Shown one piece after another: positions 35,011-41,646 of a stretch of 64,000 nucleotides of DNA. Position 1 is the stretch's first letter, and every line of letters starts with the position of its first letter. The notes beneath the pieces are model-generated. The model worked only from the letters and a program-made list of their open reading frames with translations. It had not been told where the DNA came from and made no database searches. Made by a program: the position numbers and the translations under genes. Source of the DNA: a phage; the sequence record PV730299.1; one strand, given 5' to 3'.

Positions 35011-35316
35011 GTGCAAGAACAATCCAAGTTTGGGGAAACCCCAGACAAGCGTTCCGGTGATAGCGACATGGATAGCGTGATTAACCATGTGAACAACTTC
35101 ATTCGTCAGCAGGAGACTCCAACTCCTATCGGTGCAGCCAAGGCTCTTCATGATGTACTGGTGAAGATCGGCCAGCGCTCTGAAGCGGATGAAATCTTCT
35201 ATAACTTTGAAGACCAGTATAAAGTGAAGTTTGAAGAAAACGGTCGTCCGCAGGTTGCTGTGTTCTGGGCACCTTGGCTGGGCGGCGTGAGCTGGCGTAT
35301 TGAGGATGCTGTGTAA
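35011..35316 (+). CDS. hypothetical protein, 101 aa (GTG start)
   Basis: AGGAGG RBS 5 nt upstream of GTG. Confidence 0.5.
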   Translation: MQEQSKFGETPDKRSGDSDMDSVINHVNNFIRQQETPTPIGAAKALHDVLVKIGQRSEADEIFYNFEDQYKVKFEENGRPQVAVFWAPWLGGVSWRIEDAV

Positions 35317-36002
35317 TGCTGTCGCTCTACCTGATCACGAATCTCGTCAATCATAAATTCTATATCGGTGTCACCTCAGAACCGGATAGGCGGTTGGCTG
35401 AGCATAAGTGTGGTCAGGGGAGCATTGCATTACAACGAGCGTTCAAGAAATACGGTGAAGACCAGTTCAAGTTTGAAGTTCTGTTCCGAGGGAAAGATTC
35501 GGTTATCCTTGAGATAGAGTCTGAACTGGTCTGCCAGGAGATCCTTGACTCTGGGTGGTGCTACAACATGGTCGTCGGGGGTGGGAAGCCTCCATTGGCC
35601 ACGCCAGAGTCATCCGCAAAGAGCGCCGCAACCCGCAAACGTTTGATCGCTGAAGGTAAGATTAAACCTCCACCAAGACTCACCCCTGAAGCACAAGCCA
35701 GAAAGGGTAAGATCATAAGCAAATTGATGTCAGAAGGGAAGATCCCCAAACCACCAAGACCTTCCTCTGAATCTCAAACGCGTGGAGGGGGAACTAGGAA
35801 GAGGCTGCATGCTCTTGGTCTGATAGACATTGGTCCTGGTCGCGATGAAAAGATTTACAAATGGCAGCACAAAGATGGTCGCATCGTTGAGTTAAGAAGA
35901 TGCGACATGGAACTTCAATATGGCCTCCCTTCCGGTAATATAACGAATCTCTTGAAAGGTAGGGCTAAAACATGTCTCGGTTGGAGAATATTAAATGGCT
36001 AA
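35316..36002 (+). CDS. GIY-YIG homing endonuclease (Seg-like), free-standing
   Basis: N-terminal LYLITN-x-KFYIGVT with downstream Arg and EH residues; basic repetitive C-terminal DNA-binding-like region. Confidence 0.75.
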   Translation: MLSLYLITNLVNHKFYIGVTSEPDRRLAEHKCGQGSIALQRAFKKYGEDQFKFEVLFRGKDSVILEIESELVCQEILDSGWCYNMVVGGGKPPLATPESSAKSAATRKRLIAEGKIKPPPRLTPEAQARKGKIISKLMSEGKIPKPPRPSSESQTRGGGTRKRLHALGLIDIGPGRDEKIYKWQHKDGRIVELRRCDMELQYGLPSGNITNLLKGRAKTCLGWRILNG

Positions 36003-36912
36003 AATAATTGTAGTGAAAGGCACCTCGGCCACGGGCAAGGGTACGAGAGTGGTCCAGTTCATCGAATGGCTGCGCACTAAGCTGGAGCCTACCGAACTGA
36101 CCTACACCGTTGGTGACAAGACTCGCCCGTTTGGCCTGAAGTTCGGAGAGCTGAAGTTAATCTTCGTTGGGCAGTACACCGTGTCTAACAAATCCGGTCT
36201 GGCTTCCTGGACTTCAATGGATGCAATCCATGCTGCTACAGGCTCAGGCGATATTGCTCGTGATCTAATCAAGTGCTGGTTGGTTCAGGGATACACTCTG
36301 GTGTGTGAGGGCGAACCTCTCATGCTATCGGACAAATGGCGTCCTGAATGGATGTTCAAGAACTATCCGATTGAATCATTGGCGCTGCTGTACTTTGCGT
36401 ACCCCGACCGCTATCAGTACGATGCTCGTATCCGTGGTCGATCTGGTAAAGAAGCAGGGAACTCCGGCTGGTCGCGCAACGAATCTTACTACAAGGAGTT
36501 TGAGAAGTCGAAGGCCGAAATGCTGGCGCTGGGCTTCACTGTGGCTGTTGATGATTACAGCGGACAGGATATCCTGTATAAATCACCGGATGCCAACACC
36601 AAGGAGTTCACAACCAAACAGCAGTCTGAGTTGGCGGTACTACCGTTCGACGCCCCGCTGTGGGTTGTGGGTAATGCGATTTGTCATCAGATCCGCTCTG
36701 AACTGCGTGGTGTTGACATGCACACCAAAGACTTCTACGCCTACTGTGAAACCAATCCGATGACTCGTGAAATCGGCGGCCAGGATCCTTTGGCGCACAG
36801 AGTCCCTGAGAAGCCGCAGAAGGCATCCAAAACTAAAACCAAGGCGAGCGCCCAGCCAGAAGCACCGAAGGCAGCGTCGCGCTCTCTCCTTGACCTGATG
36901 AAGAAGGGGTGA
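35995..36912 (+). CDS. P-loop kinase-like protein (candidate nucleotide or DNA-base kinase)
   Basis: N-terminal KGTSATGKGT Walker-A-like motif; overlaps stop of homing endonuclease gene. Confidence 0.55.
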   Translation: MAKIIVVKGTSATGKGTRVVQFIEWLRTKLEPTELTYTVGDKTRPFGLKFGELKLIFVGQYTVSNKSGLASWTSMDAIHAATGSGDIARDLIKCWLVQGYTLVCEGEPLMLSDKWRPEWMFKNYPIESLALLYFAYPDRYQYDARIRGRSGKEAGNSGWSRNESYYKEFEKSKAEMLALGFTVAVDDYSGQDILYKSPDANTKEFTTKQQSELAVLPFDAPLWVVGNAICHQIRSELRGVDMHTKDFYAYCETNPMTREIGGQDPLAHRVPEKPQKASKTKTKASAQPEAPKAASRSLLDLMKKG

Positions 36913-37489: not shown

Positions 37490-37655
37490 TTTTATCTTCA
37501 TGATGTTGATGTTCGTTATCTTTACGGTTTCGCTGGTCGGCGTCATGGTCACAGAAGGAGTGCAACAGCGCCCATTCTTGGTGATATGTCCTGTATCTAT
37601 CGCCACTTTCTTCTATCTGGCGTTCCGTGTTGAACTCGGGAGTAAAATCGGATGA
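37470..37655 (+). CDS. small membrane protein, 61 aa
   Basis: ORF track; hydrophobic; overlaps neighbours at both ends. Confidence 0.45.
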   Translation: MKIKQVDFIFMMLMFVIFTVSLVGVMVTEGVQQRPFLVICPVSIATFFYLAFRVELGSKIG

Positions 37656-38887
37656 CACATCTGTCTAAAATGCCGCAGGGATATAAAGCCCCTGAAAAAT
37701 GGAAATACCCGATTGATCTGGCAATAGATTATCGTAAGCCAGAAAATCGCATGTACCTACTCAAGGCTTGGGTGGAGGCGCTGTCCTACACCGAAGAGCA
37801 CAACCAGCAGATGCGTCTGATGGACTATGCGATCGAAGTCACTGAAGGTATCAGCCTCGAACAGAAAGTCGAGCGCAAGATCTGGATGGCATTCCTGTGG
37901 GGTTGTTGCTATAACGCCGTCGGGCCGTGGACGATCTACAGTGAGTTCCCTGTACCACCCCAGTCCAAAGAAGGGATGCAGCGCTTCTCTGATTGGTATA
38001 ATCTGAACTTTGATCGCATGCGATTCGATACCGACTGTCGCTACCGCAAGTCCAAGATGATTCCGTGTGTTCAGTCCTATATTGACTGGCTGGCTGGCCG
38101 TACTCAATATGACGCTTTCCGTGGGATGTTGGTGTGCATCGATAAGACAGAACAATTCACCCAGCTGTGGGACACGGCGATGTCCTGGAAATACTTCGGT
38201 CGCCTGAGCGCCTGGAACTTCCTGGAAGCCCTGAACATGGTCTTCGGGAACGAATACACCATTGACGTCCCTGGCTTCATGCTGCGTGATCGTGATGGAA
38301 GCGAGTCCAACCGTAATGGCGCGGCGTTCTTGTCCAACCGTGACGATTGGGTGACTAAACACGGGAAGAAAAAGATCAACGGTTGTCCTATCACGGATGA
38401 AGAGTGTGACATCCTTGAGGCCGACCTTGAGCAGGCGTTCCAGGATTGTGTGGCTGAGTTCGGGCACCTGACGTTCATCAACCGCCTGAACTTTGAAACC
38501 TCCGGCGCTTGTTGGCTGAAGAAATTCTTCCGACTGAAGAATACCCGTTACATCGGGTGGGACGCAGAGCGTACCTGGGATGAGATAGACTACATGGAAC
38601 GCGTCTGGCCTGAATACTCCTGCGCAGAGCTCTGGGAAGCCCGTTCGCTCTGGCTGCCAGATACCCTGTTATGTGAAAAGGCTCCTGCAGGGCACGTTCC
38701 AGGCGTCCAGAAGTGGAAGATGCCTGTATTCTTTGAGACTGGTGTTCCTCTGCATATCTGGCACCTGCAAAAGGGTACGCGCTGGGAACCATCCGAGGTA
38801 TGTACGAACCTGAAGATGCCTGTGCGCAAGGTTGAGGACAAGTCGAAGTCCAGCAGCGTCAACCTCATGGCACTCTTGAAACGCTGA
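37652..38887 (+). CDS. hypothetical protein, 411 aa, Trp/Cys-rich; possible partner of the kinase
   Basis: ORF track; ATGA-coupled to upstream genes; no motif I can assign. Confidence 0.6.
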   Translation: MTHLSKMPQGYKAPEKWKYPIDLAIDYRKPENRMYLLKAWVEALSYTEEHNQQMRLMDYAIEVTEGISLEQKVERKIWMAFLWGCCYNAVGPWTIYSEFPVPPQSKEGMQRFSDWYNLNFDRMRFDTDCRYRKSKMIPCVQSYIDWLAGRTQYDAFRGMLVCIDKTEQFTQLWDTAMSWKYFGRLSAWNFLEALNMVFGNEYTIDVPGFMLRDRDGSESNRNGAAFLSNRDDWVTKHGKKKINGCPITDEECDILEADLEQAFQDCVAEFGHLTFINRLNFETSGACWLKKFFRLKNTRYIGWDAERTWDEIDYMERVWPEYSCAELWEARSLWLPDTLLCEKAPAGHVPGVQKWKMPVFFETGVPLHIWHLQKGTRWEPSEVCTNLKMPVRKVEDKSKSSSVNLMALLKR

Positions 38888-38895
38888 TATAAATA
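38888..38895 (+). promoter_or_regulatory. TATAAATA, canonical T4-type late promoter sequence
   Basis: 29 nt upstream of ATG 38924; overlaps 5' arm of a hairpin. Confidence 0.35.
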
Positions 38896-38923
38896 TCCTC
38901 GCCTATAAAGCGAGGATATTATC

Positions 38924-39091
38924 ATGTTACAAGATCTGCTGGTTTATGCGCTTCCTGGCGCGGTTGTCGGCTTCATTGCTGGTGCTCTGGTCTTCCGTAA
39001 ACACGCGCAAGATGGTGAAGTGATTGTTCAGAAAGGCAAAGAGATTCTGGACCAGATCGAAGCCAAACTGGAAGAGCTGAAGAAAAAGTAA
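38924..39091 (+). CDS. small membrane protein, 55 aa
   Basis: Manual ORF; hydrophobic N-terminal helix; strong terminator downstream; TATAAATA 29 nt upstream. Confidence 0.4.
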   Translation: MLQDLLVYALPGAVVGFIAGALVFRKHAQDGEVIVQKGKEILDQIEAKLEELKKK

Positions 39092-39119
39092 TCTGACTGG
39101 GGTTGCTTCCTTCAATAAA

Positions 39120-39158
39120 GGGGAATGGGTTATTATTAGCCCATTCCCCTTTCTTTTT
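39120..39158 (+). terminator. rho-independent terminator
   Basis: 10-bp stem GGGGAATGGG/CCCATTCCCC, loop TTATTATTAG, then TTTCTTTTT; preceded by TTCAATAAA. Confidence 0.75.
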
Positions 39159-39259: not shown

Positions 39260-39478
39260 ATGATCAAGAACACCCGAACAATGAAGCGCGCAATCGCTCA
39301 CTGTGTCCATTCAGTGGCAACTATTATGTTCCGCCACCACATCACATTTGATGAAGCACTGGACCCACAGTACCATGAAGAGCGTTGGGATTTGTTGTTA
39401 AAGAACGGCGCCAATCCTGAGCATAAAGATCAACTCCTTGGTATGACCAAGGCGCAGCTCGTCGGTGAATCCAAATGA
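39260..39478 (+). CDS. hypothetical protein, 72 aa
   Basis: ORF track. Confidence 0.45.
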   Translation: MIKNTRTMKRAIAHCVHSVATIMFRHHITFDEALDPQYHEERWDLLLKNGANPEHKDQLLGMTKAQLVGESK

Positions 39479-40590
39479 TCTACCTCCTGTTTGGTGTGCC
39501 ATTGGTACTGGCTATCCTGTTTGTGACCTACCACCGCAAGACCCATGAGCCGAAAGAGACTCTGATAGCGACCGCGATTGTAGTGGTGCTATCCTGTCTG
39601 ATTCAGGCGGGGACTTATGCTGCGTTCTCCCTTGGTAGTTCAGGGGATGTTGAGATCCTGAACGGGTACGTCACTGCAAAGGAGCGGAATGAGGTGAGCT
39701 GTGAGCATTCATATGAATGCAACTGTTACTACACCACATCTTGTACAGGTTCAGGAAATAACCGATCTTGTACACAAACGCGTCATTGCAGCACATGCTA
39801 TGAGCATTCATATGACGTGGACTGGGATGTGTTGACGACTGTCGGTAATCTGACGATTGACCGCATTGATCGTCGCGGCCTTGGTCAGCCCCCGCGCTGG
39901 GCGCAGGTTCAGATCGGCGAACCCGCAGCCCGTGAGCATTCCTACATGAACTATGTGCTGGGTAACAAGGACTCTCTGTTCTCTCGCTCGGACCAGCAGT
40001 TTGCTGAGCGCTTCAAAGACAAGATTCCGAAGTATCCCGAAGTCTATGACTACTATCGCGTCACTCGTGTACTGAATGTGTCTGGTCTGGCGTTACCGAC
40101 CACATACTGGAACGACTATCTGAACAATACTCTGAAAACATTAGGCGCTTCACGTCAGGTCAATATCGTCTGGGTTGTGACTTCCGGTCAGCCAGTTGAA
40201 TACTTCCAGGGCTTGGTCTATGCTTGGGATGGTGGTAAAAAGAACGACGTTATCGTCGTGACCGACATCAACAAAGACCTGAAGATCAACTGGGGTAAGA
40301 GCACTTCGTTCGCTGATGGTATGCATAACCGTGAACTCCACTCTCGCAATGGCATGGCTCTCACAGGCCACGACATGGGTGTCGGTGTCATGGCTGATGT
40401 TGTCGCTAACATCACCAAAGGCTACAACCGCGTTGAGATGAAGGAAATGGAGTACCTGAAGTGGCGGGAACTCAAGACCTGGGAAGTTGTGATTGTTGTT
40501 CTGCTAGGCTGTCTACCGTTCACCGCAATTTTCATATTACAGCGAATGGAGTACAATGGTGGCCGTCGTCGTTATCCGTTTAATTTTTAA
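39475..40590 (+). CDS. membrane protein with Cys-rich extracytoplasmic region, 371 aa
   Basis: N- and C-terminal hydrophobic helices; cluster of eight Cys in CEHSYECNCYYTTSCTGSGNNRSCTQTRHCSTC; immediately upstream of LemA-like gene. Confidence 0.6.
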   Translation: MIYLLFGVPLVLAILFVTYHRKTHEPKETLIATAIVVVLSCLIQAGTYAAFSLGSSGDVEILNGYVTAKERNEVSCEHSYECNCYYTTSCTGSGNNRSCTQTRHCSTCYEHSYDVDWDVLTTVGNLTIDRIDRRGLGQPPRWAQVQIGEPAAREHSYMNYVLGNKDSLFSRSDQQFAERFKDKIPKYPEVYDYYRVTRVLNVSGLALPTTYWNDYLNNTLKTLGASRQVNIVWVVTSGQPVEYFQGLVYAWDGGKKNDVIVVTDINKDLKINWGKSTSFADGMHNRELHSRNGMALTGHDMGVGVMADVVANITKGYNRVEMKEMEYLKWRELKTWEVVIVVLLGCLPFTAIFILQRMEYNGGRRRYPFNF

Positions 40591-40608
40591 TCAAAAGAGG
40601 AAGTAAGA

Positions 40609-41178
40609 ATGTCTCAATCTAAGGGTATCGCAACAGGTTGGATAGTTGGTTTGGCTTTGCTGGGTATAATGATTCTCGGCATCGGTACAGTCATCAGCTA
40701 CTTCAACGACTTCAACCGCACTGAGCAGCAGGTCAAGAAGTTCAACAAAGACTCCGAGAACTACCTGAGCAACTACACGCTCAAAGTTCAGGAGACGGCG
40801 CAGATTCCTGACATGTATAAAGACGGCCTGAAGGAAGTGATCAAAGGCACGTTCGAAGGGCGTTATGGCGCTGATGGTTCCAAGGCCGTCATGCAGTGGA
40901 TCCAGGAGCAGAATATTCAGTTCGATTCCAGCCTGTACAAAGAGATCCAGGTGGTGATCAGTTCTGGGCGTGATGAATTCCGCATCAGCCAGACCAAGAA
41001 GCTGGATATCTGCACAATATACGAAACTAAGCTGGCTCAGTTCCCTGGTTCGTTGATTGCTGGCATGTTCGGCTACCCGCGTATCGACCTTGACAAGACC
41101 TGTCAGGTGGTGAGTGATACCCGTACCCAGGCCGCGTTCGACGCTGGTATTCAGAAACCGATTAACTTCAAAGGCTGA
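40609..41178 (+). CDS. LemA-family protein
   Basis: N-terminal TM helix and C-terminal FPGSLIAGMFGYPRI resembling the LemA signature; AAGAGG RBS. Confidence 0.6.
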   Translation: MSQSKGIATGWIVGLALLGIMILGIGTVISYFNDFNRTEQQVKKFNKDSENYLSNYTLKVQETAQIPDMYKDGLKEVIKGTFEGRYGADGSKAVMQWIQEQNIQFDSSLYKEIQVVISSGRDEFRISQTKKLDICTIYETKLAQFPGSLIAGMFGYPRIDLDKTCQVVSDTRTQAAFDAGIQKPINFKG

Positions 41179-41182
41179 TGTC

Positions 41183-41596
41183 ATGAGCGTGAAACTCACT
41201 GAATCCCTGACACTGGACCAACAGCAGGCTTTGTTGGATGAGGTAGTGATCTCTGCTATCAAGCAAGGGATTATCAAAGACGACTTGTTGATTGACCGTC
41301 CCGAGATGATCCATCATCTGGTGGTGTGCCTGGGTGAGGCCAGCAACCCTCGCAAGAAGATCGTGCTGTTTACTGATGGTGTGATCCTTCCGAGCGGGAA
41401 ATGTGCGTTCTTGGATGTGGTTGAACATCCGAACACGAAAGGCAAAGAGGTCAAGACTTCTGTTCCGGTGACTCCATACACCGAGGGTGTTGACCATCTG
41501 TCTTGGTTTGAGACAATCAACACCATTTATGTGATGACACCGGACGGTAAACCAGTTCGGGATCTACGAGGCGGCAAAGTAGAATCTGAAGACTAA
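41183..41596 (+). CDS. hypothetical protein, 137 aa
   Basis: Start set to ATG 41183 after LemA stop. Confidence 0.5.
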   Translation: MSVKLTESLTLDQQQALLDEVVISAIKQGIIKDDLLIDRPEMIHHLVVCLGEASNPRKKIVLFTDGVILPSGKCAFLDVVEHPNTKGKEVKTSVPVTPYTEGVDHLSWFETINTIYVMTPDGKPVRDLRGGKVESED

Positions 41597-41612
41597 TCGT
41601 TCTTCAATAAAA

Positions 41613-41646
41613 GGGGATAGGGTATTATTGCTCTATCCCTTTTTCG
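41613..41646 (+). terminator. rho-independent terminator
   Basis: Stem GGGATAG/CTATCCC, loop with TATTATT, then TTTTT; preceded by TTCAATAAA. Confidence 0.7.

Follow-up and report, generated by a model that had tools for sequence, protein, structure and literature searches.

A widespread phage gene pair encoding a LemA-like protein and a TPM-fold membrane protein mirrors a bacterial operon

Two membrane proteins encoded side by side

The window analysed here is a stretch of 64,000 nucleotides (nt) from sequence record PV730299.1, and its phage belongs to the Aglimvirinae (Ackermannviridae). Its plus strand carries two adjacent genes, one for a membrane protein of 371 amino acids (aa), hereafter the partner (39475..40590, phrog_2087), and one for a 189-aa LemA-like protein (40609..41178, phrog_1383). 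Both calls rest on the open reading frame (ORF) and the PHROG assignment, together with an AlphaFold2 (AF2) model of the partner and profile comparisons for the LemA-like gene. A sequence-only reading of the window had singled out these two ORFs, and its coordinates, its strand and the placing of the LemA-like gene directly downstream proved exact. We found that the pair is widespread among phages as a mobile cassette and parallels an operon of bacteria, and that the partner contains a novel Cys/His domain. On balance, we take the pair to be a phage-adapted lemA-TPM operon, whose products would form a complex in the inner membrane and act, from the periplasm, on the envelope of the host.

The two genes are separated by 18 nt, and a strong Shine-Dalgarno sequence, AGAGGAAG, precedes the LemA-like gene. 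Judged from their sequences, both ORFs are real genes under selection; the homologues of the two proteins number in the hundreds and range from 25 to 98% identity. A 228-aa antisense ORF (40591-41277, minus strand) that spans the whole LemA-like gene is presumed to be spurious.

Assignment of the 189-aa protein to the LemA family holds at the superfamily level only. Against Pfam PF04011 the protein scores 13.7 bits (E 0.056), well under the gathering threshold of 26.2, and the match is confined to residues 125-158; no precomputed Pfam domain is recorded for any of 97 homologues. Sub-threshold PF04011 matches occur in nine of 40 family members (best E 0.0016), and LemA is the Pfam family matched most often. 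A profile built from 40 sequences finds Thermotoga maritima LemA (2etd) as its best PDB match (E 0.0037), aligning query residues 34-162 with residues 10-155 of the chain, that is, nearly the entire soluble domain. Moreover, when the family was compared by hhalign with 31 bona fide LemA proteins, 135 columns aligned at a probability of 96.6% (P 6.8e-10). Altogether, these comparisons indicate that the protein is a genuine but remote LemA homologue. A profile search of a representative library showed that the LemA-like family is large, with about 1,400 clusters at 50% identity, and its best 150 matches are all strong.

The architecture is also that of LemA. The phage protein has 189 residues and LemA proteins have 186-195, and in both a single N-terminal anchor is followed by an all-helical domain of about 160 aa, the first helix of which is long. 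In the AF2 model (pLDDT 83.8), helices cover residues 6-63, 68-82, 87-100 and 108-143. The transmembrane (TM) anchor occupies residues ~9-31 (40633..40701), with hydropathy giving 12-30, and some relatives have a lipobox here instead; the helical soluble domain that follows (40702..41175) is predicted to be periplasmic. This domain contains the family signature GRYGADGSKAVMQWIQEQN and a LemA-type C-terminal motif, Y-x7-FPGSLIAGMFGYP, whose counterpart in bacterial LemA is Y...FPxVIxAxxFGF. Written as Y-x(7)-FP-x(4)-A-x(2)-FGF, the motif is present as YETKLAQFPGSLIAGMFGYP, aligned to YNxxIKRFPxVIxAxxFGF. Members of the family have almost exclusively zero or two cysteines in the soluble domain, and C135 and C165 covary perfectly, with 24 sequences having both and 16 having neither.

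Direct scans of both proteins against Pfam, NCBIfam and PADLOC gave no assignment for the partner. PHROG 2087 is labelled as unknown in function, and GenBank-type annotation goes no further than 'hypothetical' or 'membrane protein'. Matches of the pair proteins to Spore_III_AF, DUF948, LeoBC (E 8e-4) and a killer-cell lectin receptor were sub-threshold or spurious TM or coiled-coil matches, and we regard them as noise. The AF2 model of the partner (pLDDT 90.4) shows two N-terminal TM helices, a β-rich domain, an α/β domain, a C-terminal TM helix and a basic tail. Hydropathy and the model agree on a helical hairpin at the N-terminus, formed by TM1 (residues 1-19) and TM2 (~26-55) around the short basic loop HRKTHEPK (39475..39639), and on TM3 (residues ~335-361, 40477..40557), after which comes the short basic tail NGGRRRYPFNF. 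Hence, the earlier description of a Cys-rich two-helix membrane protein was right about the membrane but one hydrophobic helix short.

The β-rich domain (residues 57-158, 39643..39948), delimited from the model and from conservation, holds two 'EHSY' motifs. A cluster of eight extracytoplasmic cysteines had been claimed for this part of the protein. The cluster exists and is predicted to be periplasmic, but it consists of seven cysteines (C76, C82, C84, C90, C99, C105 and C108) plus two near-invariant histidines, H78 and H111, within the 'EHSY' motifs; two more cysteines lie within TM helices. In the partner family C84 and C105 are lost together, which is compatible with a disulfide. The joint loss of C108, H78 and H111 in two of 44 sequences, both GAP32-like, hints that these residues may form one shared site, possibly for a metal. 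Among the known TPM proteins examined, this Cys/His domain of about 100 aa has no counterpart.

The partner carries a TPM-fold α/β domain between its TM helices (residues ~199-328, 40069..40458), with the putative core motif QVNIVWVV...AWDGGKKNDVIVV. A TPM domain had been put forward earlier as something to look for in this protein; the fold bears it out, although the protein of the window has no PF04536 match at E <= 1. The signal at the sequence level is weak but consistent. Sub-threshold PF04536 matches occur in ten of 44 family members (best E 1.8e-4), and hhalign against four bacterial TPM proteins sets the core motif in register with AQVVVVVV...EWGIGQKEKNNGVLLLV at just 13% probability (P 0.0022). 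In its canonical form this core runs from a β-strand and a helix through W/Y-G-x-G and basic residues to a (D/N)N-G-V-L-L strand. The order of TPM domain, TM helix and basic tail is present in the partner, and it is the N-terminal part, with two TM helices and the Cys/His β-domain, that differs.

Many polar and aromatic residues of the partner are invariant or nearly so among relatives that are only about 35% identical (H78, H111, D114, D116, W117, R141, N159, D192, K255, K256, N257 and D258). Such conservation would suit a periplasmic enzyme, in which the TPM domain, whose GGKKND loop is invariant, acts together with the Cys/His 'EHSY' site as a metal-dependent phosphatase or nucleotidase and the LemA-like protein serves as a membrane scaffold. 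The substrate would be a phosphate compound in the periplasm or bound to the membrane, such as nucleotides or glycan intermediates linked to undecaprenyl pyrophosphate, and envelope synthesis would be reprogrammed. Joint loss of C108, H78 and H111 is what a single site would be expected to show, and a LemA-like domain has been proposed as a scaffold for membrane enzymes in mycobacteria (bioRxiv 10.64898/2026.07.15.738315). In addition, phosphatase or ATPase/ADPase activity has been reported for the TPM domains of TLP18.3, BA41 and BA42, in literature cited by PMC11237479. However, these activities are weak and disputed, and AscF binds neither metal nor nucleotide (PMC13456599). Moreover, metal binding is deduced here from covariation in just two of 44 sequences, and the gene context points to no substrate. 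We consider an enzyme unlikely.

Several lines of evidence give good support for a periplasmic location of both soluble domains, namely charge bias, covarying cysteine pairs, lipoprotein variants, a natural fusion and the hosts. The net charge of the LemA-like family is +2.4 ahead of the anchor and -0.4 after it, and about a dozen members have a lipobox in place of the TM anchor. In the partner, the basic TM1-TM2 loop and the basic C-terminal tail place the large domain outside. On one metagenomic phage contig (L008, 1012-2673) the partner and the LemA-like protein are fused in a single 553-aa ORF (P0253), whose TM count sets both domains on the same side of the membrane. The identified hosts of phages carrying the pair are all diderm bacteria.

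Database labels suggest a quite different role. PHROG 1383 and many RefSeq and GenBank records name the LemA-like protein a 'virion structural protein', 'putative structural protein' or 'structural protein', which would be in line with a virion or ejection protein that is packaged and inserts in the host membrane at entry. Of the two published proteomics datasets that we checked (LIMEstone1 and RAY), neither reports this protein in purified virions: ORF195 is not among the 39 proteins of the LIMEstone1 virion mass-spectrometry table, and gp46 is not mentioned in the RAY/Deimos-Minion mass-spectrometry paper. The gene is also distant from the structural modules and tightly coupled to that of an integral three-TM membrane protein. 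Since the virion preparations of these studies also contained rIIB, DNA ligase and PhoH, membrane contamination is plausible. A packaged protein seems very improbable to us, and the label 'virion structural protein' is to be corrected as one without support in these two papers.

Co-inheritance of the pair across unrelated phages

A phage-encoded pair of this kind had been thought unusual, which did not hold. A tblastn search over 50,697 phage records found the partner in 502 and the LemA-like protein in 488, with nearly identical host distributions, so that about 500 phage records have the pair. The two genes are adjacent and in the same order in Kuttervirus ViI, ICP1, the T5-like Vibrio phage VF16, the nucleus-forming jumbo phage RAY and Asteriusvirus Sharanji, and likewise in Acinetobacter Saclayvirus, Sinorhizobium phiM19, Xanthomonas XacN1 and a T4-like Aeromonas phage. 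RaK2-like and Agricanvirus jumbo phages are further carriers.

The same linkage is seen in metagenomic phages. In an IMG/VR sample of 82 loci, the LemA-like gene lies directly downstream of the partner in 80 (median gap 53 nt), and both genes are present in all 81 evaluable loci, the remaining contig ending too early. The pairing is very strongly conserved across lineages. In the only split locus (L051, 4022-5120), about 1.3-1.4 kb of inserted small genes separate the two members; one of these inserted genes codes for a protein of 196 aa that has a signal peptide and, at the C-terminus, TM helices.

An all-against-all BLAST comparison of the neighbourhoods of 12 lineages found no third conserved gene, the pair being the only genes common to the lineages. 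ICP1, RAY, Sharanji and Aci05 each have an ORF of about 200 aa upstream of the partner; these ORFs were considered as a third component and rejected, as they encode unrelated soluble proteins. Altogether, these data show co-inheritance, the two genes making up a self-contained cassette that recurs in large but unrelated phages of Gram-negative hosts. In the literature on phage LemA, Ackermannviridae and jumbo phages, we found no description of it.

Outside phages the partner is rare. Only 24 occurrences were found in 185,579 species-representative cellular genomes, mostly on contigs of metagenome-assembled genomes (MAGs), and most of these have a LemA-like gene alongside, once in the bacterial order, with the LemA-like gene before the partner (L107). 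A divergent relative of the partner stands alone on a few high-GC MAG contigs of myxobacterial or deltaproteobacterial type (L116, L120 and L121). Conversely, Prevotella Lak megaphages have the LemA-like gene alone (L017, 3836-4381): no partner could be recognised in its vicinity, and upstream of it come a ClpX-like gene and small ORFs.

Among the neighbours of the pair, RNA ligase or repair genes occur one or two genes away in four unrelated phages, namely Rnl2, 2'-5' RNA ligase, PF09414 RNA ligase and RtcB-like genes (L011, 1779-2765; L016, 1658-2308; L020, 6311-6931; L012, 4910-6148). These genes come from different families and may simply reflect a shared early or middle region. In Sharanji, a TelA-like gene (toxic-anion resistance, membrane stress) lies two genes upstream of the pair (L013, 893-2029).

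This distribution bears on superinfection exclusion, by which a complex at the periplasmic face of the inner membrane would block genome entry of a secondary phage, like Imm and Sp of T4. Both domains are indeed predicted to lie in the periplasm with anchors in the inner membrane, and the genes lie outside the structural and lysis modules, near rIIA, another membrane-associated conflict gene. Some LemA-like relatives are lipoproteins, as is Llp of T5. However, known exclusion proteins are small, fast-evolving and lineage-specific, whereas in phages of unrelated families, with Vibrio, Acinetobacter, Sinorhizobium, Xanthomonas and enterics as hosts, the pair retains 35-45% identity and many invariant residues. 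The carrier phages also differ in their entry machinery. In addition, the pair is homologous to a bacterial operon of housekeeping type, which speaks for a generic role at the membrane. Exclusion is, in our view, decidedly unlikely.

A role in lysis control finds even less room. The LemA-like protein would in that case be a bitopic protein with a disulfide-bonded periplasmic domain, a holin or antiholin of the type of T4 holin T, and the partner its regulator. The architecture does resemble that of T, in which a short N-terminus and a single TM helix precede a periplasmic domain of about 160 aa that has one disulfide, and the pair is close to rIIA/rIIB. The GenBank record of Vi01 even names the partner gene (Vi01_203; L009, 3501-4610) 'host lysis protein', but we found no basis for this name, and the product line reads 'conserved uncharacterised protein'. 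No similarity of the pair to holin T or RI was detected in Pfam, PHROG or fold, the helical domain being homologous to LemA instead, and no endolysin or spanin gene is adjacent in the ten lineages examined. Moreover, the T4-like Aeromonas phages (Straboviridae) carry the pair too, and Straboviridae normally have t and rI genes of their own. We regard lysis control as highly improbable, and conclude that the pair is probably part of neither the virion nor the lysis machinery.

Likeness to the bacterial lemA-TPM operon and proposed role

In the Thermotoga and Neobacillus genomes, a TPM_phosphatase gene immediately follows lemA, with overlapping stop and start codons. Since bacterial lemA adjoins TPM genes, the phage pair can be read as a divergent version of a lemA-TPM operon (PF04011 and PF04536; for example T. 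maritima TM0961, PDB 2etd, and the TPM gene downstream). Both are tightly coupled two-gene units, in which one gene encodes a bitopic, helical protein of LemA type (about 190 aa) and the other a TPM-fold protein that is anchored in the membrane and ends in a TM helix and a basic tail. In bacterial TPM partners this end takes the form of a C-terminal TM helix with a Gly/Arg-rich tail, TM-GRGRRWYRGPRF, which the phage NGGRRRYPFNF resembles, and charge bias indicates the same N-in/C-out topology. The differences are also clear. The gene order is opposite, with the TPM-like gene first in phages and lemA first in bacteria, and the phage proteins, unlike the products of the bacterial operon, both stay below Pfam thresholds. 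The phage partner has two additional N-terminal TM helices and a Cys7/His2 β-domain that none of the examined bacterial TPM proteins possesses. The LemA-like family of phages also shows features of its own, namely the signature GRYGxDGSKAxxQWIQEQN and often a predicted disulfide.

Other known systems are more distant. MamQ, a bitopic protein of the LemA family, functions in magnetosome membrane biogenesis and is the only LemA relative tied to a cellular process (PMC4902198); its partners are magnetosome-specific proteins and not a TPM protein. TLP18.3/Psb32 (photosystem II repair and assembly), AscF (the mycobacterial CIII-CIV supercomplex) and Bacillus subtilis YdjH (the PspA operon) are TPM-domain accessory proteins that have neither the Cys/His β-domain nor the three-TM topology of the phage partner, and nothing equivalent to their client complexes is known from phage infection. 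T4 rII, Imm/Sp and holin T/RI are likewise phage-encoded inner-membrane proteins that act on the envelope during infection. However, no homology of these proteins to the pair was detected, and they are lineage-restricted whereas the pair crosses phage families.

Returning to the reading of the pair as a phage-adapted lemA-TPM operon, there is good support for the notion that the two proteins would act together, probably as a heteromeric inner-membrane complex. More tentatively, this complex may act on the host envelope from the periplasmic face during infection. The envelope role is proposed by analogy, because LemA and MamQ are associated with membrane remodelling, and TPM proteins, which serve membrane complexes as accessory or assembly factors in the lumen or periplasm, with envelope stress. 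LemA-like domains are described as four-helix bundles with an extended first helix that have been implicated in membrane remodelling or in scaffolding membrane enzymes (preprint, bioRxiv 10.64898/2026.07.15.738315). TPM proteins have been proposed as chaperone-like partners of PspA and of membrane complexes (PMC11237479; PMC13456599), and envelope perturbation co-induces lemA and a TPM gene (PMC13236525). The complex would most likely stabilise or remodel the cytoplasmic membrane, or chaperone a membrane complex, and may in this way preserve an intact, energised cell while a large virulent phage completes its long infection cycle.

A bolder version of this proposal, which we consider possible rather than probable, is that the pair is a pan-phage 'envelope guard'. 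Here, a heteromeric inner-membrane complex of a metal-containing Cys/His-TPM ectodomain and the LemA-like helical bundle would, on the periplasmic side, sense or repair damage to the cytoplasmic membrane, or disarm abortive-infection defences that target the membrane, keeping the infected cell energised. If true, a function would for the first time be assigned to the LemA and TPM families in mechanistic terms, and rIIA/rIIB would be joined by a new class of phage genes that are broadly conserved and serve counter-defence or host maintenance.

LemA (PF04011) and TPM (PF04536) are very widespread membrane-associated families, and the divergent LemA-TPM pair is one of the few small cassettes common to otherwise unrelated large virulent phages. 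Phages such as CBA120, ICP1 and T5-like phages offer a compact and genetically tractable setting for the function of LemA/TPM pairs, and it is mainly for this tractable route that we hold the pair to be of moderate interest.

Surroundings of the gene block

The pair forms the middle of a compact four-gene unit, and over this stretch the phage shows 95-98% identity to the Escherichia phages YX22, ZQ1, AV101 and A221. The unit opens with a 72-aa gene (39260..39478, plus strand, phrog_16350) in the same transcription block as the pair, its stop codon overlapping the start codon of the partner (ATGA). As its conservation is limited to the Ackermannviridae, this gene falls outside the mobile two-gene module. 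The last gene of the block encodes a 136-aa protein (41186..41596, plus strand, phrog_4236); it starts 7 nt past the stop of the LemA-like gene and is also conserved within the Ackermannviridae only.

The 5' boundary of the block is an intrinsic terminator (39117..39152, plus strand) with a 16-bp stem and a T-run, found by the terminator scan and in the sequence itself, which ends the upstream unit. At the 3' boundary, a terminator-like hairpin, GGGATAG...CTATCCC, followed by a T-run (41610..41645, plus strand), was read from the sequence; with a loop of more than 8 nt, it escaped the consensus scan. The LIMEstone1 record has terminators annotated at both corresponding positions. The two regions (39105-39152 and 41600-41645) have a common extended sequence, TTCAATAAA(A)GGGGA..GGGT(T)ATTATT...CCCTTT, which suggests that the terminators flanking the block may belong to a repeated terminator element of the PV730299.1 genome. 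A promoter scan of the block region gave matches no more numerous than in shuffled sequence.

Just 5' of the block, positions 38888-39152 make up a separate mini-unit closed by the 16-bp-stem terminator. It contains a 55-aa gene (38924-39091), whose product has a TM segment and a coiled coil, and a T4-type late-promoter motif, TATAAATA, lies ahead of this gene. The other genes nearby include a DUF7181 gene and rIIA, the latter 1.8 kb downstream of the pair. Further upstream lie genes for an amino-acid:DNA transferase (PF18724, 203 bits; 37652-38887) and a 5-hmdU DNA kinase (PF18747, 524 bits; 35995-36912), which are members of the thymidine-hypermodification gene set typical of ViI-like phages. 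The kinase gene is abutted by a 228-aa ORF (35316-36002) with a GIY-YIG-like N-terminus (YLITN...FYIGVT), and the corresponding region of LIMEstone1 is annotated as the homing endonuclease F-LimXI.

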